Shown piece after piece: positions 22,372 to 54,070 of a stretch of DNA of 64,000 nucleotides; position 1 is the stretch's first letter; each line of letters opens with the position of its first letter. The notes beneath the pieces are model-generated. The model did not search any database. It was not told the DNA's origin and saw nothing but the letters and a program-made list of their open reading frames with translations. A program made the translations under genes and the position numbers. This stretch comes from an uncultured Gemmatimonadales bacterium. GTDB taxonomy: Bacteria > Gemmatimonadota > Gemmatimonadetes > Gemmatimonadales > GWC2-71-9. The DNA lies in assembly GCA_963748815.1 (NCBI GenBank), contig CAVVKJ010000010.1:1119367-1183366 (forward strand), given 5' to 3'.

Positions 22372-23550
22372 TCAGATCGTCCGTTGCGGCGAGCCCAGCG
22401 CCTTCGCGAAGCGCCACCAGCGTCGTCCGGCCTGCAACTGCCCGGCGAGGCGCTCCCCCACCCCCCGGTCCCGGTCGAGCCTGAAGACGCGTTTGAAGAG
22501 CTCGTTGGACTGCCAGGGCCGGGAGTCGCCGTGCCCGGAAGCGCGTGGCTGGATTCCGGCGCTCCAGAGGAGCTTCGCCATCCAGACGGACGGACAGGCC
22601 CCGAAGAGCCCGGTCGTGATGTAGCCCCGCTCCAGCGCGTGGCTCAGGACCGCGGGCTGCTGTGGACGGAGGGCTTCGAGGACGGTCTTCGGGATCGGCG
22701 TACCCGACAGGGTGTGTGTGATCGCGAGCGTCCAGTACGCACACGTTCCGGCTCGTGTGCGGACGGCCAGCTCGGTGAATCGGTCCCAGTCGAAGGGTGC
22801 CGCGGCCAGGATGGTCGCGATGTCCCGGACCGTGCGGCCCATGCCGCTGAACATGTGCGACCAGGCGAAGTGCACGGACAGGTGCAGCAGTTGATGATGA
22901 TCGGACGGCACCCACGCCTCGACATCGCCAAGCCTGACCGGCCTGGCGTCACGCCAGAGCTCGGCCACGTCAAGCTGAAACGGCCCGGTCGGAGGCAGCA
23001 TGGAACGGTGAATTTCCAGCACCAGATTGAGACCCTTTGGATCCACCAGGCCGGGGAGGTGCTGGTGCCCCTCGAAGAACTGTTCGCCTCCCTCCAGTTC
23101 AAGCCCCCACCCGGCCTCCCGCATGATCTGCCAGGCGCGTTCCGACTCACCGACTGGCACCAGGATGTCGAAGTCTCCCATCGGCCGCTTCAGAAACGAC
23201 CCATAGACCGTGGTCGCCAGCGCCGCCCCCTTGAGCAGCATGACGCGGATCCCGTTGCGCGCGAGCGTCGCGGCCACCTCCCGCAGGGCGGTCTCCGTCA
23301 ACGCCATCCGGAACTCGGTCACGGCGGCCTGGGCCTGGAACGCCGCCCGGACATCCGGGGGGACGAGCTCGGACTGTGCCCGCATGTACTTCCAGAGCAC
23401 GGGGAGCAGCTTCTCCCGTTCCGCCAGCGCACCAACCGCCCGCCAGTTCGGCCGGGAGGCCGCGAGTGCGGCAAAGTACGTCTCCCCGCACACGGCGTCC
23501 GGACGTGCGGCAAGGAAGAGCAACCGGGCCTCGTCAGGGAGCAGTGGCAT
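22372..23550 (-). CDS. Nucleotidyltransferase (NTP_transf_5 type), lasso cluster 1
   Basis: LLKGAALA...RPMGDFDILV, LEIH; paralog at 52864. Confidence 0.85.
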   Translation of the reverse strand: MPLLPDEARLLFLAARPDAVCGETYFAALAASRPNWRAVGALAEREKLLPVLWKYMRAQSELVPPDVRAAFQAQAAVTEFRMALTETALREVAATLARNGIRVMLLKGAALATTVYGSFLKRPMGDFDILVPVGESERAWQIMREAGWGLELEGGEQFFEGHQHLPGLVDPKGLNLVLEIHRSMLPPTGPFQLDVAELWRDARPVRLGDVEAWVPSDHHQLLHLSVHFAWSHMFSGMGRTVRDIATILAAAPFDWDRFTELAVRTRAGTCAYWTLAITHTLSGTPIPKTVLEALRPQQPAVLSHALERGYITTGLFGACPSVWMAKLLWSAGIQPRASGHGDSRPWQSNELFKRVFRLDRDRGVGERLAGQLQAGRRWWRFAKALGSPQRTI

Positions 23551-23564
23551 GGGAGAAAACCGGT

Positions 23565-24365
23565 TCAATATTGGGCCAGGGTGCCCTGTCGGCGCGCGTA
23601 CCGAAAGGCGGCGGTGATGGCGGCTGTGCCGATCAAGAAGAGTATAACCGTCGCGGCCGAGAGCGCGAGGAGGTCAGGGGCGACGTCGGCGATGGACGCG
23701 TCCTGAAGCACCACGCGCCGGAGCGCGCGGAGTCCGTAGCTCAGGGGGAGCAGATCCGAGACCGACTGCAGCCAGGAGGGGATCACGTGCGTCGGGTAAT
23801 AGACTCCGCCAAGCAGCCCGGAGATCATCAGCACCCCCTTCGGCAAGGGGCCGGCGGTGCGAAAGGCGAGCACGAGGGCCGCCCCGACCAGGCCGATGGG
23901 GACGTGCGCCAACACGACGAGCAGCAGGATGGCGAGCCCCGGCAGGAATTGCCCGGGCATGAGATTGGCGCCAAGGAGCCACCCGGCCATGAGGAGGATG
24001 GCCCCCTTCAGGGCGGCCCACAGCATGTCGAAGGCGTTCAGGCCGGCGAGGAGGGCGGGGCCGGAGGTCGGCGTGGCCAGCAACGCCTCGAGCACCCCGC
24101 TGGCAACTGCGCTGCCGACCGCCGCGGGGAGGGCTACGACGGCGACGGAAACCACCGAGAACGTGGTCAGGCCGACTAGCAGAAAGCCAAACGACTGCCC
24201 CCCCTCCATCTTGATGGCGTTGGCCATGACCGGCTGGAGTGCGCCGGAGATGAAGTAGAGCGGAACGACCGTAGCGAGGAGGCCGGCGATCGAGACCACC
24301 ATTTGCAGCCGATAGCTGAGCATCGTCTGCCAGTGTGCACGGCACAGTGCAGCAATCCGTCTCAT
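23565..24365 (-). CDS. ABC-2 type permease, lasso cluster 1
   Basis: About six TM segments; GVLEALLATP, GGVYYP, LPLSYGLRALR. Confidence 0.88.
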   Translation of the reverse strand: MRRIAALCRAHWQTMLSYRLQMVVSIAGLLATVVPLYFISGALQPVMANAIKMEGGQSFGFLLVGLTTFSVVSVAVVALPAAVGSAVASGVLEALLATPTSGPALLAGLNAFDMLWAALKGAILLMAGWLLGANLMPGQFLPGLAILLLVVLAHVPIGLVGAALVLAFRTAGPLPKGVLMISGLLGGVYYPTHVIPSWLQSVSDLLPLSYGLRALRRVVLQDASIADVAPDLLALSAATVILFLIGTAAITAAFRYARRQGTLAQY

Positions 24366-25450
24366 TGCGGTCCCCTCGCGACGACCCGCTCGATCAGATC
24401 CGCCAGGCTCAGCGGGACATGCGAGAGCTCGCTTACCGGTACACCCTCGGCGACGAGTCGGCTCGTGAGGTCAGCGCACGCCAAAGCGCCGCCGGGGATG
24501 GCGCCCTCGAGCTCGCACCATCCAGACTCGGGCGCGGGCTGCTCGATGAACGGGCCAAGGCCGGTCGTCTGGAGGACTTGTCGTGCCTCGCGCATTCGGT
24601 CGGCTGCGACTGAAATCCGGTAGCGGTTCTCGCCGGCGATCGCGGCGAGTTCCGATGCAGATCCGTGGGCGATGACCGTGCCCCGGTCCAGCACCGCCAG
24701 CCGGTCGCAGAGCTCGAATGCCTCGTCCGCGTCGTGGGTCGCCAGGAGGACGGTACACCCCTGTCGACCGACAATCTCCTCGCGGAGAAATCGGCGAAAG
24801 TCGCGGGCGCTCACGGGGTCGAGACTGCGGGTCGGCTCGTCGAGGAGGAGGACGGCTGGGCGGGAGAGGAGGGCACGCGCGATCAGCAGGCGCTGCTTCA
24901 TGCCGGAGGAGTAGGTACCGACCATTCGGCTTCCCGCGTGGGCAGAGTCCGACCGCATCGAGGAGCCGCTCGGCGGTCCGCTCCCGCTCCGCCTGGTTTC
25001 ACGTCATACAGTGCGGCGTAGAGCGCCAGATTCTGCAGACCGGAGAGTCGCCAGTAGAGGCTTCGCTCATCGGCGATGACGGGAGTGAGCATCCCGCGCA
25101 CGGCAGCCGGATCGGTCAGGACGCTGCGACCGCCGACTTCGACGGAGCCGGCGTCGGGGAGCACCAGGGTCGCCAGGATCTTGAAGAGGGTCGTCTTCCC
25201 CGCCCCGTTGGGTCCCAGCAGTCCAAAGAACTCGCCCTTGTCGAACGTCGAGCGACACGCCCGCGCAGCACCTCGACTTGCTCCCGGTGGAAGGGACGCC
25301 GGAGTGTGTCGGTCCACGATCGGCGCAGGGGAAAGGTCTTCACCAGCCCGTCGACATGAACAATAGGCTTGTGCGCCGGGTCGCCGCGCGAGGCGCCCAC
25401 GTCCGGCCTGGACCCATCGCGAGCGACCCGAGCGTCATCGACTGGCTCAT
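24362..25450 (-). CDS. ABC exporter ATPase, lasso cluster 1, apparent indels; start approximate
   Basis: [28 protein letters not shown]. Confidence 0.88.
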
Positions 25451-26413
25451 GCCGGGCCCGGAGCGGAGCTGGGGACTCTTGCGCGGAGTGCCATCCCATC
25501 AGACTGGAGGTCAGCTCCCCGATCCGCTCGAAGTCGCGCGGAATTTCCAGCCGGTAGACAGGCACCCGCTCCCCCAGCTCCACCAGGCGCTGCAGCAGCA
25601 CCGCCCGCCGTTCGACGCCGAGGAGCGCGCCCGACCTTCGTCTGGCCGAGGAGCGCGAGGGCAGCTTCGACAGCCGATAGGCGCGTTCCGGTTCACGATG
25701 CCCCCTGCGTCAGACTTGATCGGAGCGAGGAGGTAGACGCGCCGCGAGCGGGACCGCGGCTGTGGCATTCCGATCGGGGTCTTTCCAGGCGACCTGGAGC
25801 TTTGGCGCCAGCTGCTCCGGCGTCACGGGTGAGGCTTGGCCCGCGACCCGTGCGGCGGAGTCGGCCCAGAGTTGCACGACGGGGACGCTGGGCAACACCA
25901 GGGGATGCTCGCCGGAGGTGACGGGGACGAGGTCGTCGGCGAGCAGCCGTCCCCCGGCGTTCACGAGCGCGGTGGCGGTGGTGGACTTTCCGTGGAACTT
26001 TGGGCGCGAGAAAGGCGACGGCAACGTCGCCGAGGGCGACGGCGCTCCCGTGGAGCGTGATGATATCCTCCTGGTCCAGCGCCACGGCGAAGACTCGCCC
26101 GAGGATGTCCTTGCGGACGGCGTCCATGTCGGGTTCGGGCGGTGGCAGCCCAGTCGATCCTCCGGCCATCTGCGGAAATGTCGAACACCCCGGTATCGTC
26201 GAACGCGAGGCGGAGGGCCCGACCTGCACGGTAGAGTGACACGCTGACCCCGGCATCGACGTCCTCTGTCCCCAGTCGGCTCAGGTCAGGGAGAGGGGGT
26301 GGTGCGTTCAGGCGGTGGAGGGACCAATCAGGGAATTGGGCGGGGCGGGGAATGAGCTCAGGAAACTCTACTTCCGAGCGGAAGACACCGCCGAAGAGAT
26401 GGTAGTCTGGCAT
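25447..26413 (-). CDS. HPr-kinase-like peptide kinase, lasso cluster 1, apparent indels; end approximate
   Basis: LHGSAV..., PKFHGKSTT, LLADD, VPVYRLEIPRD; paralog at 50062. Confidence 0.82.
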
Positions 26414-26477
26414 TGGGAGTCCGGGTTGGAGGGTCGGACGGCCTGACCCGCTGGCCGCCCGGCCCCACAGTCGGAAC

Positions 26478-26616
26478 CTACGACCGCGTGCACCCAACGG
26501 TGCAGCCGTCAAGGAAGCCGCTGCCGAGAAACGCCACCGTCCCCATCGGCGCCAGTGCCGACGAGGGTGAGGGCCCGAAGGTCCCCGAACCGCTGAAGAG
26601 CAGGCTTCTGATACAT
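26478..26616 (-). CDS. Lasso peptide precursor A1; one extra base in the core
   Basis: AAGGAG RBS; MYQKPALQRFGDLRALTL-VGTGADGDGGV; removing one T near 26530 gives ..LGSGFLDGCTVGCTRS*. Confidence 0.85.
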
Positions 26617-26638
26617 GATGCGCTCCTTCGAACAGTAT

Positions 26639-28633
26639 TCACGGGCAGCTGGCCCGCACAGCCCACGGCCTCATGCCGCAGGAAACTCCACTGCCCGGTC
26701 GCTTGACCCGATGGAGGACAGTGACCGGCGATTCACGTTGTTCCAGCCCACGCAGCCAAAATTCGGTCTTGATCGTGTGAAAGAGGTTCACTCTCACGAA
26801 CTCGTTGCACCAGTCACTGGAGTAACTGTCCACCGCCCTCCGGAGGGCCGGCAAGTCCACGATGCCAAGTTCCGCGAGTCGCAGCGGTTCGGAGAAGAGT
26901 TTCGCGAATAGTGCCGGATAGGATTCGCTCATCCGGCGTTGTGAGAATCCGATGGTCATTCCCGTTCGGTGAGGTCGCGGCGCCAAGACCGATTCCGGCA
27001 GCAAGCCAACCATCGCCTGGCGGAGGAGGATCTTGGTCTCGGTGCCGTCAGCACGCTCGGCAATTGGCCGCCGAAGTGCGAAGTCCACGATCCTCAAGTC
27101 CAGCAGCGGCGATCGAACCTCGACCCCTTCTTGTAGCAGCGGACCCCGCATGAACGCCCCACCCCACCCCCAAACCGGCAGCGTGAGGTAGAGCAGGCTC
27201 TCGGTCTGCGCCAGTCCGTGGCCTCGTACCCTCCCGAACACCGAAAGATCCCGCTCGCGCAGGCTGCTGCACGGCCAGGAACTCCGGGCGAACCCATGTC
27301 GCCGGGGCGCGCTCGAGGTAGTGCCGGGGGAGCCGGTGCCCGAGCACTCGCTCCCCAAATTGGACGACCGATCGGGGAAGGAGTGGCAGCACTCCGGCTC
27401 GGACGAGGTGCCGCCAGCCGCGCGGCCATCGCGTCCGCGCCGAGCTTCAACGAACTCCCCCCAGCGGCCGGTTCGGAGCAGGTCCGCAAGCAGGACGTCT
27501 GACACCTGGAAGAGCTGATCGCCACCACATCCGTCCAGCGTGACCCGTGCGCCGGCGCGGCGCGTGCCCTGCGCAAGGCCTCGATTCCAGAGTTCGTACA
27601 AATGCGCCGGCGGCTCGTCGTACTGTGCCGCGCGGTCCTCAAGTCGTTCGAGCATCTGGAGATCGTCGCTCTGGAGCCAATGAACCTCAGCCTTCCAGTG
27701 CTCAGCGACCTGACGTGATGAACTCGTCCTCGTGGCCTGGGTCACCCTCCGGATAACTGATCGACACCGGACGAAGTCGTGGCCGTGTCTCGGGGGTCAG
27801 GGCATGTTGACCGGCGCGCAAAGACAGCCGTCGAGTCCCAGCCACCGCTCATCCAGACCGTGCGTCACGCCGCTGGCAGAGCCGTTGGGAGACGGCCGTG
27901 CACAGCAGTTCCCGAAGTTCATCTGCGGCCTCAGCGGACGGCGCTGGATGCCGGTCGGGAGCCTCCCGAGGTTGCCACCAGGTCGCCGTCGCTGCGTCGC
28001 CGTCCCGCCAGACGACTCTACGCCCGGGGAGAAGCGTGTCAACTCCCCTGATACGCTGTGTCCATTCCGTTCGACCATGCCAACCCGGCGACTTGGCCGC
28101 CGAGATTGGCCAGGTTCAGCTGGTTGGTCGTGCCCCGCAGTTCTGCCAGCGCCCGGCAGGAGGAGGCCACGGCAATCCCGGAGCCGAGGCTCGCGCACAA
28201 AAAGTGGGCGCCCACCGATCGGGTCCCGCGCCGCGAGCAGGGTTCGGCGGCGGCGGTCCCAGATCACGAACGCGTAGTCACCGTTCAGGTGGTGGACCAT
28301 CTCCGAGCCCCACGCGCGGTAGGCCGCTTCCAGGTAGTGGCTCGCCGTCTCGCCCCGCGCTCGCACGCCAGCCGTCGAGAGCTTCCGCGCGAGTCCCTTC
28401 TTGTCAAAGAGCGAGGCGTCCGCCGCCACCACCAGGTCTGGCGTCTCGAGTACCAGCACGTCGACCGCTGAAATCGTCGTCGAGCTGCCATTCCTTCCGC
28501 GTCACGACGAGGAGCGCGTCCTCCTCCGACCAGACCTGCTCCCGGTCGCCGCCGAGGTAGCGGAGCGGCGCCGAGCGCCGACTCCACCCGGGAGTCGCGC
28601 ACCTGACCGATCGACCGCGAGGATGCCGCTCAT
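26639..28633 (-). CDS. Lasso cyclase (asparagine-synthetase-like), cluster 1, several apparent indels
   Basis: Starts MSG with no catalytic Cys; GDYAFVIWD..ARDP, DGCGGDQLF, EVRSPLLDLRIV, KILLR. Confidence 0.88.
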
Positions 28634-29082
28634 GGCGCCAGCGCCGAGAAATCGTGCAGCGGCGTGAAGCGGCTGCACCCGCGACCTGCTCGTCACCGAT
28701 GACCCGGCCCTCGAGCTCGATCCAGGCGTGGGCCAGCAGCTCCCCCGCAACCTGCGCCACGCCGACCCGGACGACGGCGGGCCCGGCGTTGGCCCGCCGG
28801 ATCTGGCGCTCCAGCGCCACCGCCCGGACGAGGCAGGTGGGCCGGAAGAGTCCGAAGCGGGCCACGCGGTCCACCGCCAGGGCCAGCCGCTCCAGACGCG
28901 CATCGTTGCGGACACCCGCTCGCCGTCGGTGCCGCGCTCAGCGGGCGGAGCAGCTCGCCCTTCGGGCGTCGCCGGATCGTCCAGAGCGCCGCCAGGAGAT
29001 ACCACTGGGCGAGGACCAGGTCGGCAAACTCCCGCGGCGTGAGGGTGAAGAGCCTCCTCACGACACCGCATCCAGCGGTCAA
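28630..29082 (-). CDS. Lasso leader peptidase B2, cluster 1, apparent indel
   Basis: PTCLVRAVAL, VRVGV, AHAWIE (Cys-His-Glu triad). Confidence 0.88.
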
Positions 29083-29399
29083 ACACCGGCGTCGTCCTCA
29101 CGTCGACGTCCACCAGCAGCTTGGCCTCGCGGAGCTGATCGAGCAGTTCCGATGACATCCGCCGCGAGCTGCGCTCCGGGGACGTCGGGATAGACCTGTC
29201 CGAGCCGTGCGCAGAGATCTTCCAGGCTGGCGCACGCAGGTGGCAGCAACTGCCAGATCCGCGCACCAACATCATTGAGCCCGAAGTAGATCTCATCCTC
29301 CATCTGCAGGAGGACGGCGCCTTCGGAGACTTCCCGGAACATGACGGCCGGGTGGGGACGAGGAAGAATGGTCGGAGCCTCCGCATGAGCGCGGTTCAC
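29079..29399 (-). CDS. PqqD-family RiPP recognition element B1, cluster 1, apparent indel
   Basis: EGAVLL..EIYFGLNDVGARIWQLL, ELLDQLREAKLL. Confidence 0.88.
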   Translation of the reverse strand: MNRAHAEAPTILPRPHPAVMFREVSEGAVLLQMEDEIYFGLNDVGARIWQLLPPACASLEDLCARLGQVYPDVPGAQLAADVIGTARSAPRGQAAGGRRREDDAGV

Positions 29400-29721
29400 G
29401 GGAAATCCCGGATTCGAATTGATTGAGGAACGCCGGGGCCTCCGGCGAGAGAAGAGCTTGAGGCAAGGACAATTCCCGAACTGCCACCGTGTCGGGAGTC
29501 GCCACAAATGCTTGTCAGTGAATGGCTTAGAAACTGATGCCACGGGGGATTCGGCGCCCGTGCCGAGTCATCGGCGCCGAGCCGGATCCACGGGAATGTC
29601 GGGGGGGCACGACACGACTGCAGAGAGTTGTCAGTGCACGGGGCTGTCTGTGCGGTGTTGGCTCCTGGGCGAGAGACCGGACGGGCTCGTGTGCGAACCG
29701 CCCAGTCTCCCAGAACGTGGC

Positions 29722-29863
29722 CTACGATCTCCCGGCGCACCCGATGGTGACAACCATCGATGTACCCGGTGCCGAAGATGCCACCGTCCCCATCGGGACC
29801 GAGCCCGATGAGTGTGAGGGCCCGAAGGTCCCCAAACCGCCGAAGTACGGGTTTCTCGTACAA
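29722..29863 (-). CDS. Lasso peptide precursor A2; TTG start, one extra base in the tail
   Basis: CAGGAG RBS; MYEKPVLRRFGDLRALTL-IGLGPDGDGGIFGTGYIDGC; removing one base near 29750 gives ..TIGCAGRS*. Confidence 0.85.
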
Positions 29864-29972
29864 GCGGGCTCCTGGGAAGAGTGTCACGGGCAACTGGCCC
29901 GCACAGTTCGCGACATGGCGCCGCGCCGACCGTGACAGACGGTCAAGCGCCCCGCTCGTCACCAGCGGTAAG

Positions 29973-29988
29973 GGCAACTCCCGTTCCA
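29973..29988 (-). promoter_or_regulatory. Putative sigma54 (-24/-12) promoter for precursor A2 / cluster 1
   Basis: TGGAACGGGAGTTGCC (GG-N10-GC); IHF consensus TATCAACACTTTA at 30049-30061. Confidence 0.55.
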
Positions 29989-30218
29989 GTGATCACGGTC
30001 GATGCGGCCAATTGCGCTTCGGAAGACCGCTTGACCAAGCAGTTGCAATATCAACACTTTAGGAGCGGTGATCCTCGAGATGGACCGTGCAAATTGTGAT
30101 GTGGACAACCGGGGAGCCGAGTACCGCAGCGACTACGCCACACTTCCCGACACACAACACCCCGTCCCTCCTCTCGGAGAGCGGGGCTTGTGCACTCCCC
30201 CGGACCGACCCTCCGGGG

Positions 30219-35778: not shown

Positions 35779-35793
35779 GCTTCGCCGTGCTCC

Positions 35794-39787: not shown

Positions 39788-40942
39788 GTGAAGCCCGTAC
39801 GCGTGAGCGACCGAGGCGCCGCCCGCTGGACCCGCGGTCACCCGTGGATCTTTCGCAGCGACTTGATGGACGACGTCGAGTCCGCCGGTGTCGTCTCCGT
39901 CACCGACCCGCGCGGCCGCTTCCTCGGCCAGGCGCTGGCCTCGCCCCGGTCCGAAATCCGGCTCCGCCTTCTCGACCGGACCGAGACGCCCATCGACGTT
40001 GCCTGGTGGCGCGCCCAGATCGGTGCGGCGCTGTCCCGACGCGAGGGGATCGACGCCAACGCCTTCCGTGTGGTCCACGGCGAAGGAGACGGGCTCCCCT
40101 CCCTGGTGGTGGACAAGTACGACCGCTGGATCGTCGCACAGGTCCTCTCCGCCGGTCTCGAGACGATGCGGGACGACATATCCGCTGCGCTGCTCGAGAT
40201 CTTCGAGCCGGAGGGCATCCTGCTGCGGAACGACGTGGCCGTGCGGAAGCAGGAGGGGCTGCCGGAAGAAATCGTCCTGATGCATGGCACCGTCCCCGAG
40301 TCGATCGAGATTCGGGAGGGCGCGGTGCGCTACCTTGCCGCGCCGTGGGAGGGCCAGAAGACAGGCGCCTTCCTCGACCAGCGCGAGAATCGCCTGCTGG
40401 CGGCGCAGCTGGTCCGCCCGGGCGGCACCGCACTCGACTGCTTCTCCTACCACGGGTCCTTCGCCCTGCACCTCGCCGGCAAGGCGGGCCGCGTCGCAGC
40501 GCTCGACGCAAGCCGGGAGGCGCTGACACGTGGCACCGAGAACGCCGTGCTGAATGGCGTCGACAACATCGACTGGGTGGAGGGGGACGCCTTCGAGGCG
40601 CTCCGCGACTGGGAGCGCGCCGGCCGTCGCTTCGACATGGTGGTGGTGGACCCGCCCGCCTTCGCCAAGCATCGCGGCGCGCTGGGGCAGGCGTTGCGGG
40701 GATACTCCGAGATCAACCTGCGCGCGATGCGGATCCTCGCGCCGGGGGGCGTGCTGCTGACGGCGTCGTGCTCACATCACCTGAGCCGCGCCGATTTCCT
40801 CAAGATGCTCGCGAACGCCGCGGCCGACAGCGGCCGGCGGCTGACGCTGGAGCGTGTGCTCGGGCAGGCGGTGGATCACCCCGAGGTGATCACGATTCCG
40901 GAGACCGGCTACCTCAAGGGGGCAGTCCTGCGAGCCGACTAG
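39788..40942 (+). CDS. RlmI-family class I SAM-dependent rRNA methyltransferase
   Basis: GHPWIF, HGEGDGLPSL, GQKTGAFLDQRENR, VVVDPPAF, TASCS. Confidence 0.92.
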   Translation: MKPVRVSDRGAARWTRGHPWIFRSDLMDDVESAGVVSVTDPRGRFLGQALASPRSEIRLRLLDRTETPIDVAWWRAQIGAALSRREGIDANAFRVVHGEGDGLPSLVVDKYDRWIVAQVLSAGLETMRDDISAALLEIFEPEGILLRNDVAVRKQEGLPEEIVLMHGTVPESIEIREGAVRYLAAPWEGQKTGAFLDQRENRLLAAQLVRPGGTALDCFSYHGSFALHLAGKAGRVAALDASREALTRGTENAVLNGVDNIDWVEGDAFEALRDWERAGRRFDMVVVDPPAFAKHRGALGQALRGYSEINLRAMRILAPGGVLLTASCSHHLSRADFLKMLANAAADSGRRLTLERVLGQAVDHPEVITIPETGYLKGAVLRAD

Positions 40943-40946
40943 TTGA

Positions 40947-41062
40947 ACAGAAAACGCGGGAAACACGGAATGGAATGAAGCGCGGAAGAACAACTTGGTG
41001 GGTGCGGCCGCGACCACCAAGCATTTTTCCGAGCTTCTGATTCTTCCGCGCTTCCCGCGTTG
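40947..41062. repeat. About 120-bp terminal-inverted-repeat element, copy 2
   Basis: ACAGAAAACGCGGGAAACACGGAA...TTCTTCCGCGCTTCCCGCGT. Confidence 0.65.
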
Positions 41063-41088
41063 CAATTGCCCTGGAACATCACTGGGAC

Positions 41089-42076
41089 TTACCGCGGCGG
41101 CAGGCCCCGTAGCCACTCCGCGATGTCCGCAGATGACCTGCGGTTCCACCGTCCCCGCCACCCCGTATTCCGCCGGATTCGGCGCTCCGGTGCCTGCAAT
41201 GAACAGGTGATTGAGGCTCGGATACTCCCGAAATTCCACCGCTGTATTCCCCGCCAGCCCCTCCCGCCACGCCTCGAAGTCCACCATCGTCACCTGGTAG
41301 TCGCGGCCCCCCTGCAAGATGAGGATCGGTATCGGGAGCTTGGCCGCGACAGAGACCGGGTGGTACGCCGCCAAGTCCAGCCAGTAGGCCGCCGGCGCGC
41401 CGAGGAGGAGCGTCCGCGAGCCAGAGTCTGCGGGGGTCAGCGCGCGGACCGCCGCCAGGCTCGGCGCGAGCCCCACGAGCGCCTTGTCGATGCCGGCGGT
41501 GTCCGCGCCCGGCAGGCCGCGCATGTAGGTGATTTGCTCCTCCATCATGTCGGCCAGCGATCGGGTGGCGCCCGCCAGGATGACCAGCCCCGCGAGCGCG
41601 GTGTCCCGCGCACCGATCCGCGGCGCGAGCATGCCGCCCAGGCTGTGGCCCAGCACCACCACCCGGCCGGGGTCGACCTCGGGGAGGCCCCTGAGAAGCG
41701 CCGCTGCGGAGAGCGCGTCGTCCACCACTTCCTCGTCGACGGTGAACGTCCCGCCCATGAAGGAAATCGGTGCCGCCTTGCTTCGCTTGTCATATCGGAG
41801 CACCACGATCCCACGTTCGGCGAGGCCCCAGGCCAGGTCCCGGAAGGGCTTGTTGGCACCGACCGTCTCGTCACGGTCGTTGGGGCCGGAGCCGTGCACC
41901 AGGACGATGCCGGCCGCGCGCACCGCGTTGGTGGGAATCGACAAAGTCGCAGGCAACCGGATCTTGCCGGTGACCACCGCGGTATCACGCTCCACGAAGC
42001 TGATGGACTGCGCCGTCAGCATGGAAGGCCAGGCCAGCGCCATGACCAGGAGAACGACGGAGGCCCGACGACTCAT
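41089..42076 (-). CDS. Secreted alpha/beta hydrolase, apparent indel near the 3' end
   Basis: HGSGPNDRD, GHSLG, GGRDYQV, LNHLF. Confidence 0.88.
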
Positions 42077-42744
42077 CCGGCGGTCGGGTTCCTGCCGGTG
42101 CCGCTCTCCTCCTTCTCCCGCCGCCACTCGAGGTAGGAGTAGACCACCGGCCAGAGCACCATGCCGAAGACCGCCACCAGCATTGCGGTGGTGGAGTTTC
42201 GGCCCATCGGAATGAACGCTGTGGCAACGAATACCAGCCCGGCGATCGTAAATGCGTAGCCGCCAATTCGGTGCGTCTTCCGCCACACCCGCTCGCTGCT
42301 CAGCGTCCACGGCGTCCGGATGCCCATGAACCAGTTCGGCCGGATCCGGGGCAGCAGGTTCCCCATGAAGACAAACAGCGCGCCGAGGAGGATCGGAAGC
42401 ACCGACCGCATGTCGAACGGCCAGCCCAGAGCTGATCCGAGAATCAGGACCTGGACGATACCGACGAAGCCGATGATCACGTTGACCAGCAGGAAGTACA
42501 CCGACCCGTGGAACTCATAGTTCTTCTTGAGGGGGTCGATGTTCGGGAGGGCGGCGAAGATCAGCGTCATCAGCGCCATCACCGCCGGCATGAGGAAGGC
42601 GGCGAAGGCGGGGGACGACCACCCGTTGGGCTGGCCGTTGACGCCCCAGTGCGTCGCAACCCGTTCCGGAAGCTGCGGCCAGGCCCACCACGAGAAGGCC
42701 AGAGTCGCGAGGGTGACGAGAATGGCGGGCATCAGCTTACGCAT
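42073..42744 (-). CDS. sdpI: SdpI-family membrane immunity protein
   Basis: LPERVATHW, NWFMGIRTPWTLSSERVWRKTHR. Confidence 0.9.
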   Translation of the reverse strand: MRKLMPAILVTLATLAFSWWAWPQLPERVATHWGVNGQPNGWSSPAFAAFLMPAVMALMTLIFAALPNIDPLKKNYEFHGSVYFLLVNVIIGFVGIVQVLILGSALGWPFDMRSVLPILLGALFVFMGNLLPRIRPNWFMGIRTPWTLSSERVWRKTHRIGGYAFTIAGLVFVATAFIPMGRNSTTAMLVAVFGMVLWPVVYSYLEWRREKEESGTGRNPTAG

Positions 42745-43060: not shown

Positions 43061-43127
43061 CGTCACCCCCGCGAAAGCGGGGGTCCAGCGCCCGTGCATC
43101 TGGATTCCCGCTTGCGCGGGAATGACG
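43061..43127. repeat. Inverted pair of REP-like palindromes
   Basis: CGTCACCCCCGCGAAAGCGGGGGTCCAG ... CTGGATTCCCGCTTGCGCGGGAATGACG. Confidence 0.8.
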
Positions 43128-43233
43128 GGAGGACCCTCACCTGCCTCCCTGCCCCCCTGCCCCTGCCCCTTGCCCCGCTGCCCTGCTGTCTTGATGCCTT
43201 GCCCTGCCTCCCCAGCAGTACGACTTTTCTTCC

Positions 43234-46580: not shown

Positions 46581-47002
46581 GCTGACCTCTGGTGTCGAGG
46601 AGTTCCGCCGGCCCGAATGGCCATCCGGATGTTACAACATCGCGCATTTCGATTTTCGCGCAATAGCCGGGGCGGGGCGAAGTCGTTGGGATCCGGCAAG
46701 ATGTGATCACGAGTTCGAGCAGTTACTCAGGGGCCGTTGCGAAGCCCCACCCTCGCCAGCGAAGCTCCGAAATCCGATATCGAATTCGACCTGAGGTGCC
46801 GTGAGCTGCAATCAATGGCAGGCGAAGTTTGAAAACGTCGCGCATCGGCCCGCCGCCCCCTGCGGCCGGAAAGAACCTGCCGGGCTACAGACCTGCGGCA
46901 CTGGCAACACGATCGGCCTCATTCCATGCTTGTCACCTGAGGCAGCCACCATCTAAACACCTACATAACAACAAGATATGAGTTTGGCCCGAGGGGGAAT
47001 AT

Positions 47003-47018
47003 CGGCATACTCTTTGCC
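47003..47018 (+). promoter_or_regulatory. Putative sigma54 promoter of lasso cluster 2
   Basis: CGGCATACTCTTTGCC (GG-N10-GC) with an AT-rich IHF-like tract at 46966-46978. Confidence 0.55.
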
Positions 47019-47099
47019 CATACGAAGTGCAGCTCGAACCAAGGGTGACCATCCGCACCCCTGGTCTCCGGGCTCCCCACGCGAGAGGACTGTTCCTCC

Positions 47100-47365
47100 A
47101 TGCTCCCACGACCACACCCAGGTGTGCTGTTCAAGCCCGTTTCGGACGGGGCCGTGCTGCTGCATGTGGAGGAGGAGATCTACTTCGGCCTCAATGAGGT
47201 CGGCACACGCATCTGGCAGATGCTGCCTCCCACGTGCGCCGATCTCGATGACCTCTGTGCGCGATTGTCCGGGTTTACGCGGATGTGGCCCCGGACGTCC
47301 TCAGGAGCGACGTAGTCGAGCTCCTGGCTGAACTCGAGGCAAATCAGTTGGTGGTGACTGCGTGA
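47100..47365 (+). CDS. PqqD-family RRE B1, cluster 2, apparent indel near 47272
   Basis: DGAVLLHVEEEIYFGLNEVGTRIWQML...DVVELLAELEANQLV. Confidence 0.88.
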
Positions 47366-47832
47366 CGAATCCGGTTGCCTCGGAGTCCCGCCTCGGGCAC
47401 CTGACGCGCCGGCTGTTCAGCCTGCCGGCGCGGGAGTTCGGAGAACTCCTGGTTGCACAGGGCTACCTCGTACGGGCGCTCTGGACCGTGCGCCGGCGAC
47501 CAAAGGGCGAGTTGCTCCGTCCCGTGGACGGGGTCGCGCCTACCCACTCGCATCCCGATGCTGCCCAACTCACCCGGCTCGTCACCGCGGTCGACCGGGC
47601 GGCCAATCACGGTGTATTCCGTCCCACCTGTCTGGTTCGCGCGGTGGCCCTCGAACGGATGATCGTCCGCGCCGGGGCCGGCCCGGCGGTCGTCCGGGTC
47701 GGGGTGCAACGCGACGACCAGCAATTCCACGCTCACGCGTGGATCGAGCTTGATGGCCGTGTGGTCGGCGATGAACCGTCCCGGATCCGGCGCTTCACGC
47801 CCCTCCACGATTTCTCGGCGCTGGCACGGTGA
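47362..47832 (+). CDS. Lasso leader peptidase B2, cluster 2
   Basis: PTCLVRAVAL, VRVGV, HAHAWIE. Confidence 0.9.
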   Translation: MTNPVASESRLGHLTRRLFSLPAREFGELLVAQGYLVRALWTVRRRPKGELLRPVDGVAPTHSHPDAAQLTRLVTAVDRAANHGVFRPTCLVRAVALERMIVRAGAGPAVVRVGVQRDDQQFHAHAWIELDGRVVGDEPSRIRRFTPLHDFSALAR

Positions 47833-49778
47833 GCGGGCTTCTCGCCGTGACCGGTGCGGTCAACGAAGCGCGGATCGACGCGGCGCTCGCGTGCCTCGCG
47901 CGACTTGGCGGGGAGGACGAGGAGGTCTGGTCCGAAGCGAGCACCACGCTCGCGGTGACGCGGAAGCCGTGGGAGCTGCACGGTGACTTCTCCGGAGATG
48001 TCCTGCTGCTCGAGAAGACCGACCTCGTGGTGGCGGCAGACGCGTCCCTGTACGATCGCGCGGGACTCACGCGGGCACTCGCTTCCGCCGGCGTCACTCC
48101 CGACGGCTTCACTCCGACTGCCCTTATCGAGGCAGCGTATCGGGCGTGGGGCCCTGCCCTGGCTGAGCACCTGGTCGGCGACTACGCGTTCGTACTCTGG
48201 GACCGGCGGCTGCGCCGGCTGGTGGCCGCGCGCGATCCGCTCGGCATGCGAACGTTGTATTGGGCGAAGCTCGGGGACCGGGTCGCGGTCGCATCGTCCT
48301 CGAGGGCACTCGCCGAATTGACGGGCCGCGCTGACACACTGAACCTCGCCTCCCTCGGCGCCCAGGTGGCCGGCCTGATCTGGAGCAACGGAACCGATAC
48401 CGCGTACGTGGGCGTCGATCCCGTCCCTGCCGCCCACCGCCTGATTTGGGAAGCGGGGCGCAGTCGGCTGGAGCGGTTCTGGCATCCGCCGGTCGCACCC
48501 GACCGCCGGCCGACCGATGCCGCCGAGGCGGCGCTCGAGCTCCGATCCCTGCTGAGCAAGGCCGTCGTCGAGCGCATGGGAAGTGGCCAGAAGCAGCGTG
48601 TGGATGAGTGGGGGCTGGGACTCAACGGCAGTGTTCGCGGCCGGTCAGTGGGCGCTCCCAGAATCGGAGCGGTCGCGCCTTCGCCCGGTGTCCATCAGTT
48701 ACCCCCAGGGGGATCCTGGGACGGGAAGACGAGCTCATTGAACAGGTGAGTCGGCACTGGAATTCGACCATCCACTGGATCGACAGCGCCGACATTCCGC
48801 TCCTCGACGAACTCGAGGTGCGCGCTGGCCTGACCGACGAACCACCGGTTCACCTGTACGAACTCTGGAACCGGGAACTCGCGCGCGGTTCCCGGGCCAT
48901 GGGCGCCCGGGTCGCACTCGATGGCTGCGGCGGCGACAATCTCTTCCAGGTCTCGGATGTGATTCTCGCCGACCTGCTTCGTACTGGCCGGCTGATCGCA
49001 TTTGCGAAACGAGCGCGATCCCGCCGAGGAATGGGGTGGAAGTACCTCGCGAAGGCGGGTGTGCTCCCCTTGCTCCCCGACGCGCTGGTCCGGGGGGGGG
49101 AGCAGGTGGCCGGGCGCCGCCTCCCCAGGCACTACATGGAGCATCGCCCGGCCGAGTGGATGCGCGACGAGTTTCTCGCGCGCGCATGGGCTTCGGGACC
49201 GTGCGCTGGAAACACTCCGCGCCGGCCCAGGCGACAGCTTGGCACAAGCAGAAAACATTCTTTTCGTCAACGCCCCGCTATGGGGATGGGCGGGCGGCTA
49301 CATGCGGAGCGCGCTGCTGCAGGAGGGGGTCGAGGTTCGCTCCCCGCTGCTCGACCTGCGGGTCGTCGAGTTTGCGCTCCGCCGTCCGGTTGCGGAGCGG
49401 GCGGATCGGTGGGAGACCAAGATCCTCCTCCGACGCGCGATGCGCGGGCTCCTCCCCGAGCCCGTCCTCGCGCCCAGGGCACATCGCACCGGAACCACGG
49501 CGGGCTTCTCGAAGCGACACATGCAGGCGGCCTACCCGGCGCTGCTCCGGCGACTCTTCGAACAGCCGCTCCGCCTTGCCGAGCTCGGCATCGTCGACGC
49601 GGCCACCCTTCGTACCGCGGCGGACCGCTGGAGCACCGGCGGCGATGCGTCGATTCGCGTCGGATTGTTCGATGTGATGAGGGTGGAGTTCTGGCTGCGC
49701 GGGCTGGAGCGATCGACCAAACCCACGAGGACCCGGTCCGGTCGATCGAGAGCATTGAGTGAAGTTTCCGTCGCCTAG
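47829..49778 (+). CDS. Lasso cyclase, cluster 2, apparent indels
   Basis: No N-terminal Cys; GDYAFVLWD..ARDPLG, DGCGGDNLF, EVRSPLLDLRVVEF. Confidence 0.9.
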
Positions 49779-49842
49779 CGCGACGGGCTGTGCCGGCAGA
49801 TTCCGGCGAGACTCAAGCGTACCACGAGGAGGTGATTGTCAC

Positions 49843-49995
49843 ATGTATAACAAGCCAGCACTGCAGCGGTTCGGTTCGCTCAGAGACCTGACCCTGATCG
49901 GATGGGGTGCCGACGGAGACGGCGGCATCCAGGGGTACGGGCTCATCGTAGCAGGCATTACCGACGGCTGTGAATGGTCTGGCTGCCGGTCCTAG
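49843..49995 (+). CDS. Lasso peptide precursor A3, intact, 50 aa
   Basis: GAGGAGG RBS; MYNKPALQRFGSLRDLTL-IGWGADGDGGIQGYGLIVAGITDGCEWSGCRS*. Confidence 0.92.
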   Translation: MYNKPALQRFGSLRDLTLIGWGADGDGGIQGYGLIVAGITDGCEWSGCRS

Positions 49996-50061
49996 GACCG
50001 ATCGGGTTGTCCGGTCGGCGGCTCCCAATCGCGCCGTCCGGGCCCCCCAGCCTCCCCGCCA

Positions 50062-51005
50062 ATGCCTGATTACAACATCTTCGGAGGGAGCTTTCGCTCG
50101 GGACTGGTTTTCCCGGAGCTCACGCCGAATCCCGGGGCTTCCGGTGCGGTGGCTGCTCGATATCGGCTCCCGTGCCCGCGAAATTGCCGACGCGACCACG
50201 GTCGGCCGCGAGGAGGTCGAGAAGGGGGTTGCAGTGACCCTTGCCCAGCATGCCGATGGGTTCCGGCTGGTGTTCGACGACACGGGCACCTTCGATATTT
50301 CTGTGGACGGCAGCCGGATTGAATGGACGCCGCCTCGCTGATCCAGACCTCGCGGCTGCCCGCAAGGACATCTTGGGGCGCGTATTCGCCGTCTGCCTGC
50401 ACCAGCAGGGGGTCTTGGCGTTGCACGGCAGCGCAGTGGAGCTCTCGGGAAGCGCCGTGGCGTTCCTGGCCCCGAAGTTCCATGGCAAGTCCACCACAGC
50501 CGCTGCGCTGGTCGACGCCGGGGGTCGGCTGCTCGCCGACGATATCGTCGCGATTACCACGGACGGCGCTCCAGTCGTCCTCCCCAGCATCCCCTTCATC
50601 CAGCTCTGGAAGGATTCGGCCGACCATGTCGCGCCAGCATCAGTCGCCGTGCCGGGAGACGAGGGTGGACCGAAGCTCCAGCGGCGATGGAAGGGGCCCG
50701 ACCAGAACTCGAGTGCGCCCTCGCCGCTGGCCGCCGTCTACCTGCTGACGCCGGTCCTGCCTGGCGGATCAGGTGGCGTCAAACGCACACGCCTGTCCGC
50801 CGTCGAGGGAGCACTCGCCATGCTTGGGCAGGCAAAGATCGGGAACCTGCTTGGCGTGGAGCGCCGGGCCGAATTGCTGCAGGCCACGGGTGAGCTGGCG
50901 GACCGCGTCCCTGTCTACCGTCTGGAAATCCCGCGAGACTTTGAACGCCTCCACGAGCTCACAGCCGCCCTCTGGAGCTGGCACCCGGCGAGTGCGGACT
51001 TGTGA
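50062..51005 (+). CDS. HPr-kinase-like peptide kinase, cluster 2, apparent indels
   Basis: LHGSAV, APKFHGKSTT, LLADD, VPVYRLEIPRD. Confidence 0.85.
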
Positions 51006-52052
51006 CGACCAGGCACGGACCGACGCCGCCGCCAACGAATCATTCCCTGATCCGCGTGGACGGTCTGGTCAAGAGCTTTCCGGTACGCCGCCCGTGGGCG
51101 GCAACCCTCCGGCATCCGCTCCAGCGTTCCCGGGTCGAGGTGCTCCGCGGCGTTTCGCTCGAGGTGCGGCGGGGGGAATTCTTCGGGCTCCTCGGCCCCA
51201 ACGGAGCCGGCAAGACCACCCTTTTCAAGATCCTCGCTACCCTGATCCTGCCGGAGGCGGGCACCGTCGAGGTGGCCGGCATCGATGCGCTGCTGCGCCC
51301 GGCCGCGGTCCGCGACCTGCTCACCCCCGTCATTGCCGACGAGCGGAGCCTCAACTGGAGGCTGACGGGGACGGAAAACCTCCTGCTGTACGCCGCGCTC
51401 TACGGCGTACCGCCCACGGAACGGAAGCCTACCGCGCGTCGCCTGCTGGAGACGGTCGGCCTCACCGAGGCGGGTGGTCGAATGGCGGGGACCTATTCCT
51501 CCGGGATGAAGCAGCGGCTCCTCATTGCGCGGGCATTGCTGTCGCGCCCTTCGGTGCTGCTCCTCGACGAACCGACCCGCAGCCTGGACCCGGTGAGCGC
51601 CCGCGACTTCCGTCGGTTCCTGCGGGAGGAGGTGGCGGGCCGGCAGGGGTGCACCGTCATGCTGGCCACGCACGACGCCGACGAGGCTCTCGAGCTGTGC
51701 GACCGGCTTGCCGTGCTGCATCGCGGCCGCCTGGTGGCGCAGGGCACGGCTCGGGAGCTGGCTGATGTCGCCGGCGAGCGCCGCTACCGGATTGTTGTTC
51801 CAGGGGAGATGGCGCCCACGGCACTGGCGCTCCTTTCGACCTTGGGGCACCCCGGCTTCGCCGGAGTCGCCGCAGAAGCCACCGACGGATGGATGAGCCT
51901 CGAAGGGGAGCTTTCCGGAGGCGTGGCCGCGTCCGCCGAGGTGCTGCGCCGGCTGGGTGCGGCGGACCTGCCGGTCGCGGAGTTCGCTCGGATTCCGATG
52001 CCGCTCGCCGATCTCATCGAGCGGCTCGTGGTGAGGAGGCGATCCGACATGA
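51002..52052 (+). CDS. ABC exporter ATPase, cluster 2; reads in frame into the permease as sequenced
   Basis: [24 protein letters not shown]. Confidence 0.88.
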
Positions 52053-52849
52053 GCAGGGTCCTGGCCCTGATCGAGGCGCAATGGCGGGTCGCGATGAGCT
52101 ATCGCCTGCAGACCCTGCTCTCCTTCGGCGGGCTCGTCTTTACCGTGGTGCCGCTCTTCTTCATCGCGCAGGCGGTGCAGCCGGTGATGGCGAACGCGAT
52201 CCGCGACGAGGGAGGCAATGCGTTCGGGTTCCTCCTGATCGGCACCGTGGCGCTCCTCCTGGTGACCACCGCGCTCTCGGTCGTCCCTTCCGCGCTCGCC
52301 GGGGGCATCGGAAGCGGGACACTTGAGGCGCTGCTGAGTACCCCGACCCCGATGTCCACCCTGGTCGTCGGCATGAGCGCCTTCCCGCTCCTCATGGCAT
52401 CGCTGCGGGCGGGCGTGCTTCTGGCCGGAGGATGGCTCCTCGGCGCGAGCATCTCGCCGGCGTCGCTTCCGCTCGCGCTCCTCATCCTTGCCGTCATCGT
52501 ACTGGCACACGCCGCCATCGGGCTCATGAGCGGCGCGATGGTGCTCGCGTTCCGGACGGCGGGCCCCCTGTCACGCCTGGTACTCATCTCCTCCAGCCTG
52601 CTCGGCGGCGTGTATTATCCAACCCATGTCATTCCTTCCTGGCTCCGAGTGGTGTCGGATATGCTCCCGTTGAGCTACGGCCTGCGCGCCCTCCGACGAG
52701 TCCTGCTGCAGGATGCCTCGATCCGTGACGTGGCCCCGGACCTGGCCTTCCTCCTCGGGGAAACGGCCGTGCTGGTGGTGCTGGGAGTCGGTGTCTTCTC
52801 GCTCGCCTTTCGCCATGCGCGCCGCCAGGGCACGCTGGCCCAGTACTAG
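52049..52849 (+). CDS. ABC-2 type permease, cluster 2
   Basis: Own GAGGAGG RBS and ATG; 801 nt, same length as the cluster 1 paralog; ends RRQGTLAQY. Confidence 0.88.
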   Translation: MSRVLALIEAQWRVAMSYRLQTLLSFGGLVFTVVPLFFIAQAVQPVMANAIRDEGGNAFGFLLIGTVALLLVTTALSVVPSALAGGIGSGTLEALLSTPTPMSTLVVGMSAFPLLMASLRAGVLLAGGWLLGASISPASLPLALLILAVIVLAHAAIGLMSGAMVLAFRTAGPLSRLVLISSSLLGGVYYPTHVIPSWLRVVSDMLPLSYGLRALRRVLLQDASIRDVAPDLAFLLGETAVLVVLGVGVFSLAFRHARRQGTLAQY

Positions 52850-52863
52850 CGACCCGGCCGCAG

Positions 52864-54070
52864 ATGCCTGTCCTTCCTCCGGAGGCACGCCTCCTGCTTT
52901 TCGCCACCCGCGCCCCCACCCCGGAGGACGATCGTGTCATCCGCGAGCTCGTCGAGGGGCCGATAAATTGGCGCCTGGTAGGGGCACTCGCGGAGCGCGA
53001 AAAGTTGCTCCCGGTACTGTGGAACCGGCTCCACGGCCACACCGCCGCGGTGCCGCCCGAAATTGCTGAGCGGATTCACGCCCAGGCCGCCGTGACCGAA
53101 TTTCGGATGGCGATGACGGAGACGGTACTCCAGGACGTGGTGCGAGCGACTCGCGGCCGAGAACATTCACGTCATGCTGCTCAAGGGCGCTGCGCTTGCA
53201 CTGACGGTGTACCCGTCGTTTGCCGCGCGGCCAATGGGAGACGTGGACATCCTCGTCCACCCGGAGGAGGCCCAGCGCGCCTGGCAATGCCTCGTGGACG
53301 CGGGATGGACGGCGGAACTCAGCGGAGGGGAGAAATTCTACGAGGGACATCACCATCTGGTCGCCCTGAAGGACCCGAACGGGCTGCAGCTCGTCCTCGA
53401 GGTGCATCGCGCCATGCTTCCGATGGCCGGCCCATTCCTCCTCGACGAGTCGCGAGGTGTGGCGGGAGGCGCGCACCGATTCAGGTCGGGTCGGATCGAC
53501 GGCATGGGTGCCAGCTCGATGGCATCACCTACTGCTTCACCTCTGCGTCCACTTCGGCATGGTCGGACATGCTATTCGTCCGGACTGGGCAGGACGGTGC
53601 GCGATGTCACAACGCTGCTCGAGCTCGAAGCGATGTGACTGGCCGGGCTTCATCGAGCTCGCGCGCCGGGACACGGGCATCGTCGCTGTGCCTACTGGAC
53701 ACTCGATGATCGCGCGAGACTCTGTCCGGGGCTCGGCGTGCCCGAATCGGTGATTGACCGCGCTGCGCCCACGCGGTGCAGCTCCTGGCGGGGTCGCTCA
53801 GGCGATCGAGCGCGCCACACATCGCGTCCGCGCTGACGGGGGCGTGTCCGTCGATTCGAGCTCATGCGGGTGCTCTGGAGCGCCGCCATTCGCCCGAACG
53901 CCTCCGGGCATGGGACGGCCCGCCCATGGCAGGTCGGTGAGGGGTTCGCCGAGGCATTTCCGGCATCGAGCAGGCTGAGTCGGGCCGCCCGAGTGCGCTC
54001 CCATCTCAAGGGATGGGCCGGGTGGCTCCGATTTGCAGGGATTGTCGGAATTCCGCGGCGGATCGTGTGA
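52864..54070 (+). CDS. Nucleotidyltransferase (NTP_transf_5 type), cluster 2, apparent indels
   Basis: LAEREKLLPVLW, LLKGAALA..RPMGDVDILV, LEVH. Confidence 0.85.

Follow-up and report, generated by a model that had tools for sequence, protein, structure and literature searches.

Genes and precursors of the two clusters

We describe two lasso-peptide biosynthetic clusters in a 64,000-nucleotide stretch of DNA (hereafter the window) from an uncultured Gemmatimonadales bacterium (assembly GCA_963748815.1, contig CAVVKJ010000010.1, positions 1,119,367-1,183,366, forward strand). Each encodes a RiPP (peptide made by the ribosome and modified post-translationally) recognition element (RRE; B1), a leader peptidase (B2), a lasso cyclase (C), a precursor (A), an HPr-type kinase (K), an ATP-binding cassette (ABC) ATPase, an ABC-2 permease and a nucleotidyltransferase-like protein (N), in the order B1-B2-C-A-K-ABC-permease-N. 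By its Pfam matches, cluster 1 occupies 22372-29399 on the minus strand; cluster 2 lies on the plus strand at 47100-54070. About 17 kb of conserved genes separate them, and no meaning of the inverted orientation was found. No third copy was found in the genome (3.16 Mb, 86% complete) by blastn and family searches.

Table 1. Features of the window that concern the two lasso clusters
Feature	Position	Strand	Support and remarks
tRNA genes, seven; the last, tRNA-Arg(CCG) at 18503-18576, is the edge of the slot with cluster 1	17814..18576	+	
Variable slot, limits approximate: two Ig-like protein genes and cluster 1	18630..30150		Flanks kept, content differs in 5/5 congeners
Cluster 1 N (nucleotidyltransferase), intact, GDxD	22372..23568	-	PF14907, E 1.5e-43; alignment, model, fold search
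Cluster 1 ABC-2 permease, intact	23565..24365	-	PF01061
Cluster 1 ABC ATPase, 4 frameshifts, start approximate	24362..25450	-	PF00005 in two fragments
Cluster 1 HPr-type kinase K, 6 frameshifts, His-Lys-Asp-Asp, end approximate	25450..26413	-	
Precursor A1	26478..26616	-	NF033521; orthologue alignment
Cluster 1 lasso cyclase C, 11 frameshifts, SGGxDS and DGxGGD, without N-terminal Cys	26639..28633	-	
Cluster 1 leader peptidase B2, 2 frameshifts, Cys-His-Glu/Asp motifs, start approximate	28630..29101	-	NF033537, 44 bits
Cluster 1 RRE (B1), 1 frameshift, ends approximate	29098..29399	-	PF05402, E 4.4e-11
Extra precursor A0, TTG start, upstream of B1	29722..29863	-	NF033521, 24.5 bits
Presence/absence block: cluster 2 and VanZ-like gene	46689..55325		Co-binned contig C18 and congener G150 lack it at the same junction
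Cluster 2 RRE (B1), 1 frameshift	47100..47365	+	PF05402
Cluster 2 leader peptidase B2, intact	47362..47832	+	NF033537, 70 bits
Cluster 2 lasso cyclase C, 3 frameshifts, without N-terminal Cys	47829..49778	+	
Precursor A2, intact, 50 residues	49843..49995	+	11 database homologues
Cluster 2 kinase K, 2 frameshifts, His-Lys-Asp-Asp	50062..51005	+	
Cluster 2 ABC ATPase and ABC-2 permease, single frame as assembled	51002..52849	+	
Cluster 2 N, 10 frameshifts, GDxD	52864..54070	+	
VanZ-like membrane protein gene, travels with cluster 2, start approximate	54098..55330	-	PF04892

PqqD, Transglut_core3, GATase_7 with Asn_synthase, Hpr_kinase_C, ABC_tran, ABC2_membrane and NTP_transf_5 are matched in each cluster. 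For B1 and B2, PF05402, PF13471 and NF033537 (lasso_biosyn_B2, 44 bits in cluster 1 and 70 in cluster 2 for a cut-off of 33) score above cut-off in both copies. Hpr_kinase_C (PF07475) is matched weakly, below its cut-off, in both clusters, as is TIGR04352. A preliminary description of this DNA, made from its letters, had proposed two paralogous clusters at 22372-29863 and 47100-54070, on opposite strands and in the above order, each with its own kinase and nucleotidyltransferase; the Pfam and NCBIfam families in each copy, and the catalytic residues that are kept, bear this out. The profile search that it suggested recovers PqqD, Transglut_core3, Asn_synthase, NTP_transf_5 and lasso B2, but the cyclase fragments, though their top NCBIfam matches are the lasso cyclase models NF033535 and NF033561, score far under the whole-protein cut-offs.

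The cyclases match PF00733 and contain the SGGxDS motif, and the N-terminal, glutaminase Cys is missing; a true AsnB-type amidotransferase at 62336-64000, truncated by the contig end, has it. Their assignment as ordinary AsnB was rejected: they are without this Cys and the lasso models score best. Among PDB sequences the cyclase matches only TsnB-like and AsnB entries.

By alignment, the catalytic Cys and His of B2 are present in both copies, and both kinases carry the His-Lys-Asp-Asp set described for paeninodin-type kinases (PMC9266682). N carries GDxD in both copies, and the two Asp are invariant in 57 of 57 aligned proteins. No PDB sequence matches N. Its model has a predicted local distance difference test score (pLDDT) of 93.7, a single-sequence fold having been unusable at 39; in a fold search it resembles MenT1, LnuA, ANT(2'')-Ia and FKRP, with a single match at E<=0.001. 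As modelled, N is therefore a nucleotidyltransferase fold without a close solved relative. To homologues from a Paenibacillus lasso cluster, K is 32% identical and N 24% over 178 residues.

The lasso leader model NF033521 scores above cut-off at three places, giving three precursor genes. A1 and A2 lie between C and K; A0 (29863-29722) was missing from the preliminary gene list, correct in the genes it named, although it fell inside the coordinates. A2 has an 18-residue leader and a 32-residue core, with a predicted Ile1-Asp8 ring, two tail Cys and a terminal Ser. A1 has a YxxPxL leader with Thr at -2 and a predicted Val1-Asp8 ring, and A0 has the same type of leader and a predicted Ile1-Asp8 ring. 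Aligned to six homologues, both contain one extra base, in the core of A1 and near the end of A0, beyond which the frame yields a terminal Ser in A0 and, in A1, two Cys and a terminal Arg-Ser. Exactly two Cys, both in the tail, as in class IV lasso peptides, occur in A2 and, by alignment, in A0 and A1. The cores are 28-32 residues long. A0 and A1 have about 45 nt of upstream sequence in common, so A0 is likely a local duplicate.

The leaders of A0, A1 and A2 are nearly identical, and their register (Tyr-17, Pro-14, Leu-12, Thr-2) matches that of bsf (PMC10368454). We compared 69 distinct precursors of the order under a filter that required an acidic residue at positions 7-10, so that only the choice among those positions is informative: Asp or Glu stands at core position 8 in 59. 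Position -6 is Phe or Leu in 65, as Phe-6 of fusilassin (PMC6784204). Core position 1 is filled by ten different amino acids, and position 2 by Gly in 61 precursors; 52 end in Ser, and at least two tail Cys are present in 49. The 24 nearest database precursors all have Ile or Val at position 1, Asp8 and a terminal Arg-Ser, and 21 of them have two tail Cys: the terminal Ser is more constant than the Cys pair. At loci L100, L103, L074, L081 and L043 a kinase is present and the precursors end one or two residues past the last Ser, or in Arg, Glu or Asp.

A model of B1 and B2 of congener G151 with A2 scored 0.82 against 0.42 for the best control. Of the solved pairs, 51 of 78 come up to the mark set for such models, as do 2 of 108 that are mismatched; the runs share at least 64% of contacts, and the partner pLDDT is at least 49. 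In the model the leader lies on B1, and the interface includes residues 16-19 of the precursor together with the catalytic Cys and His of B2, near whose active site they stand. Since RRE-leader complexes have already been solved, the model would show likeness only, and it leaves the cut site unfixed.

On every testable feature, the sequences agree with membership of the lasso family and of its kinase-bearing type.

Predicted products and their modification

Should the cassettes be expressed, as we infer, B1 would bind the YxxPxL leader and, by analogy with paeninodin and pseudomycoidin, the kinase would phosphorylate the last Ser of the linear precursor. B2 would cleave two residues past the leader Thr, and the cyclase would close the ring around the tail. 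The two tail Cys could oxidise without a dedicated enzyme, class IV clusters being described as needing no oxidase (PMC9266682). The N-fold protein may then attach a further group to the phosphate, a hexose if pseudomycoidin is the guide; this is the weakest step. The ABC-2 pair would export the product. The likely products, by these analogies, are lassos with an Ile/Val1-Asp8 ring, a tail disulfide and a phospho-Ser, perhaps hexosylated. We consider it probable that two old paralogous cassettes make peptides with this ring, a tail disulfide and a phosphorylated terminal Ser; given such a lasso, hexosylation would have about an even chance.

Several observations weigh against such products. 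Seventeen of the 69 precursors of the order lack the terminal Ser, and the Cys pair is missing from three of the 24 nearest. The kinase scores under the Pfam and NCBIfam cut-offs, and its P-loop is atypical. In the Bradymonas sediminis system, BsfK phosphorylates a ring Ser and not the terminus, and the available text gives no function for BsfN (PMC10368454). Ile and Val are absent from the first residues named in the relevant passage of a lasso review (PMC6784204).

The preliminary description also stated that PsmN glycosylates the phospho-Ser, which the sources leave unsettled (PMC6993621, PMC9266682); a related gene, lppN, could be deleted without effect (PMC13381572). It is possible, at somewhat less than even odds, that the lasso and its phosphate form as predicted but that N transfers a nucleotide or a phospho-sugar or alditol from a nucleoside diphosphate donor, or idles without a partner. 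The modelled fold, with LnuA, ANT(2'')-Ia and FKRP as neighbours, is that of a nucleotidyltransferase, not a glycosyltransferase; the pseudomycoidin authors themselves allow for a host enzyme that adds the sugar (PMC6993621, PMC9266682); the lppN deletion was silent (PMC13381572); and 18 of the 69 loci with a kinase showed no N, some of these loci being truncated at contig ends. Against this, the only characterised lasso N was needed, via its DxD, for the +162 and +324 Da species (PMC6993621), and the same motif is the one kept in all 57 aligned proteins.

A different first residue is also conceivable: if B2 cleaved one residue later, a Gly1-Asp7 ring of seven residues with a conventional first residue would result. 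According to the review, lasso cores usually begin with Gly, and rings of seven residues are known (PMC6784204); here 61 of 69 precursors have Gly directly behind the predicted first residue, which itself varies over ten amino acids. Cleavage there would, however, move Thr to -3 and disrupt the -17/-14/-12/-6/-2 register (PMC10368454, PMC6784204), and relatives with Gly directly after Thr-x keep Asp at 8 or 9. We regard the shorter ring as unlikely, and the Ile/Val1-Asp8 ring remains our prediction. The calculated mass of the A2 product is 3149.40 Da for Ile1-Asp8 with the disulfide and 3036.31 Da for Gly1-Asp7, a difference of one residue. Neutral monoisotopic masses calculated for the other forms of the Ile1-Asp8 product are 3151.41 Da for the ring before the disulfide closes, 3229.36 Da once a phosphate is added to the disulfide form, and 3391.42 and 3553.47 Da with one and two hexoses on top.

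The gene set is of a known type, common in the order, and would work like a pseudomycoidin-type cluster. The psm cluster of Bacillus pseudomycoides has a similar set (C, A, an HPr-type K, B1, B2, N with DxD and an ABC exporter), with C, A and K adjacent, a Ser-ended precursor and an N modelled on ANT(2'') (PMC6993621). Its order is C-A-K-B1-B2-N-D, whereas here it is B1-B2-C-A-K-D1-D2-N; the exporter here is an ATPase with an ABC-2 permease, the core has 28-32 residues with Ile/Val1, Asp8 and a tail Cys pair, and the host is a diderm. According to the same authors, genes like psmN occur commonly across diverse bacteria (PMC6993621). Paeninodin, ThcoK and SyanK share the His-Lys-Asp-Asp kinase and the terminal Ser; paeninodin differs in that it is a class II peptide without Cys, its cluster being described without N (PMC9266682, PMC8498205).

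The idea that precedents come only from Firmicutes did not hold: the published text places SyanK in Sphingobium (PMC9266682) and a cluster with both K and N, bsf, in Bradymonas (PMC10368454), both diderms. The latter contains A, B1, B2, C, D, K and N, a YxxPxL motif at -17 to -12 and a ring to Asp8. It differs in Ile at -2, in Gly1 and in phosphorylation at Ser3 (PMC10368454); here position 3 is not conserved (Trp, Thr, Leu), and the terminal Ser is.

With the class IV peptides LP2006, pandonodin and felipeptins, the predicted products would share one disulfide within the tail, a long core (33 residues in pandonodin) and the lack of a dedicated oxidase; those clusters are described, in the text available, without a kinase or a nucleotidyltransferase (PMC9266682, PMC13352647). 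The lpp systems of Bacillota, which make linear polyphosphorylated peptides, combine an RRE, an HPr-type kinase and an NTP-transferase, and pose the same question of cross-talk between co-occurring clusters. They are described with a signal-peptidase-like protease and no cyclase (PMC13381572), whereas both clusters here have B2 and C. Searches of plasmids gave distant homologues only; a cluster on a Bacillus plasmid is without an annotated N gene.

What may be new, to judge by the precursors, is the product: a branched first residue with a disulfide and a phosphate. Lasso clusters in 29 marine Gemmatimonadota genomes are counted, not described, in the text available (PMC11316326). In agreement with the preliminary description, which knew of no characterised product of such a system, no characterised Gemmatimonadota lasso peptide was found in the literature, although MIBiG, subscription journals and RODEO tables may hold cases. 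Likewise, no phosphorylated class IV peptide was found there, including the accessible parts of PMC9266682 and PMC13352647 (subscription journals and supplementary tables may hold cases), nor an Ile or Val first residue, including the accessible part of PMC6784204 (subscription journals and RODEO tables may hold cases). If the prediction is true, Gemmatimonadota would gain their first lasso peptides, which, within the reach of the literature search, would also be the first both locked by a tail disulfide and phosphorylated.

Their role is the least constrained part of this picture. A secreted signal, or a product that stays with the cell surface, is likelier than an antibiotic, given that paeninodin and pseudomycoidin are reported without antibacterial activity (PMC6993621). 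The neighbouring genes give no steady clue (150 of 193 picked open reading frames, at 42 of 48 chosen loci); in this sample a fixed link to surface-glycan genes was unsupported, polysaccharide-related genes standing beside only about seven loci.

Frameshifts and integrity of the assembly

The preliminary description called both clusters complete. This stands for gene content; as assembled, 9 of the 14 enzyme and transporter genes and two of the three precursors are frameshifted. Compared with the intact proteins of G151, five of the 14 genes keep their frame, and the others change it 40 times in all, 24 times within cluster 1 and 16 times within cluster 2. Thirty-seven of the 40 are scored +1, and no in-frame stop was found across about 13 kb of coding alignment between the clusters and G151. 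The same bias affects core genes: at 4675-15925 there are 30 single extra bases and 6 missing ones relative to G138, and the stretch at 10-12 kb, with the ATP synthase genes, contains 19 out-of-frame extra bases relative to both G138 and G150. Substitutions between cyclases fall 46/32/158 on the three codon positions for cluster 2 against G138, and 148/115/291 for cluster 1 against the copy in the corresponding slot of G083. Because of the +1 bias, the absence of stops, the same bias in the ATP synthase genes and the third-position excess, the frameshifts look like errors of assembly in genes that are under selection. In congeners G083 and G151, cluster 2 is intact. Its ATPase and permease form one 615-residue frame here and are separate genes in congeners; the fusion is probably due to one extra base at the junction.

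Decay of one or both clusters in this strain would be the alternative, cluster 1 in particular being a pseudogene cassette of which only the precursors, or nothing, are used. The clusters do have more frameshifts per length than the conserved genes at 32-46 kb, which show none, and this weighs against assembly error as well; moreover, the orthologous slot copy of G083 is reduced to B1, C and A, and some congeners lack either cassette. Since the 32-46 kb genes are free of shifts, the errors appear patchy, and lower depth over cassettes present in part of the population may explain it. Decay is nonetheless improbable in view of the +1 bias without in-frame stops, its recurrence over 4675-15925 including the ATP synthase genes, and the third-position excess in both cyclases; assembly error remains the reading that we adopt.

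The single DNA sequencing run found for the region holds 6% of the words. Its short contigs miss the precursors and every frameshift; where they do match, at 98-100%, they cover pieces of cluster 1 as well as both flanks. No RNA sequencing runs that hold the region are listed. The small contigs C15, C16, C18, C12 and C4 are 95-99% copies of parts of larger contigs, which indicates that the bin mixes strains; in place of 40942-42105 of the window, C18 carries another insert, of 10 kb, that includes an AsnB-like gene. That the two clusters stand side by side only through an assembly or binning artefact, as the strain-variant contigs (C18 being without cluster 2) and the want of a run covering the region might suggest, is very improbable, given flanks in the same gene order as in congeners, cluster 2 at the identical site in four of five congeners, a cluster 1 orthologue in the same slot of G083 and the contigs of an independent run that match cluster 1 pieces and both flanks.

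History of the cassettes and their spread in Gemmatimonadota

The two clusters are 65-67% identical at the nucleotide level. Trees were built for the cyclase, the kinase and N from 17-19 rows chosen among more than 80, with proteins projected on one reference; a quick tree with 39 rows agrees with them. Cluster 2 is sister to the copy of G138 (89-92% identical for C and K), inside the clade of resident congener copies, and the cluster 1 cyclase is sister to that of the tRNA-slot copy of G083 (support 99/97). The approximately unbiased test rejects a grouping of the two window copies with each other, with p-values of 1e-137 (cyclase), 0.004 (kinase) and 3e-5 (N), which discards a recent duplication within the genome. 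The copies, as the preliminary description had it, are not an assembly duplicate. In these trees the copies split before the sampled congeners diverged, by either duplication or transfer from a sister lineage.

Cluster 1 occupies a slot between tRNA-Arg(CCG) and a CBS gene. This slot is empty in G053. In G138 it contains an integrase element that comes with a 47-bp repeat of the 3' end of the tRNA, in G151 glycosyltransferase genes, in G083 B1-C-A with other cargo, and in G150, on the CBS side, an unrelated lasso cassette. In the window's slot neither an integrase nor a duplicated tRNA 3' end was found; all that is repeated there, in degenerate form, is the hairpin that follows the tRNA. Cluster 2 forms with the VanZ-like gene a block at 46689-55325 that stands at this site in four of five congeners. 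It is absent from G150 and from the co-binned C18, the latter having flanks 96-98% identical. In both, the same ends meet across a 17-nt spacer that is nearly identical; no direct repeats were found at the ends of the block. The comparison of synteny that the preliminary description proposed thus finds the flanks kept, with each cluster copy carried by some congeners and missing from others. Its duplicated system holds in so far as the copies are paralogous; by sequence, the twins are exchangeable cassettes whose paralogy is old.

The slot copy of G083 (L052:5596-8030) consists of B1, cyclase and precursor only, adjoining two family-2 glycosyltransferases; B2, kinase, exporter and N are not in it. 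That genome has one B2 and one kinase, both in the resident cluster, which this slot copy would have to borrow. Together with the near-identical leaders, this suggests that co-resident cassettes may share enzymes. The cassette of G150, which is without cluster 2, lies by the CBS/Usp flank (L053:1900-8940); it is full and distantly related, with its nearest relatives in other genera.

A kinase search of the species collection gave 23 loci, all Gemmatimonadota by title, and the close homologues are titled Gemmatimonadales or Gemmatimonadaceae, in agreement with the host phylum that had been guessed from the letters. Counting the window's genome and G157, a lasso B2 is found in 102 of 301 genomes of the phylum, and this cyclase type, at E<=1e-40, in 71 of 401 genomes of the order, including all five congeners. 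Our locus survey covers 73 cyclase loci in 62 genomes, many of the loci cut by contig ends; the window's genome, its five congeners, two genomes taken earlier and G157 stand outside it. The exact order B1-B2-C-A-K-ABC-permease-N occurs in 25 of the 73 loci (22 genomes, 11 genera), the kinase in 69, and the kinase with N in 51. Two cyclase loci are present in 11 of the 62 genomes, and in three (G481, G050 and G237) two full clusters follow this order, so that twin clusters are not a rarity. The arrangement itself is of little weight. The predicted peptides are a plausible new variant.

More tentatively, Gemmatimonadales may make an undescribed lasso family in which the first residue is beta-branched or otherwise free, the tail has a disulfide and the end is a phospho(glyco)-Ser, from cassettes that swap among a few slots, share a leader and pool enzymes. 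If so, the cyclases would be unusually tolerant at position 1, as the ten first residues suggest, and useful for engineering. The intact, well-modelled N and the intact congener clusters could reveal what PsmN-like nucleotidyltransferases transfer, and the congener clusters could also show whether two lasso pathways that use one leader keep their enzymes apart or have them in common within one cell.

The survey gave further observations. In the sister family, cassettes of this type sit between rpsG and fusA, all on the same strand; 12 of the 73 loci (L089, L092, L106, L125, L127, L130, L133, L136, L138, L144, L148 and L154) show both flanks and 14 more show one, in 11 genera. The cassette of the window's genome is not between these genes, and a literature search found nothing on this placement of lasso cassettes. 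B1, B2 and a kinase with N or an exporter occur without an adjoining cyclase at L038:8925-11781 (G023) and in the L085:14660 region (G399). At L094:10157-11694 (G235), two ferritin-like genes stand inside a lasso cluster, between precursor and B1.

Within the window, Rfam searches returned tRNAs only, and scans for promoters and terminators gave signals no more frequent than in shuffled sequence. The variable slot also contains, at 18651-22364, two paralogous Ig-like (Big_2) genes, 84-89% alike over long stretches, one of which carries four 258-nt repeats. An 8-nt tandem unit followed by a palindromic, REP-like element is found at 17630-17662, 35663-35787, 38732-38855 and 43077-43128; genome-wide there are about 30 copies of the palindrome and 62 octamer runs.

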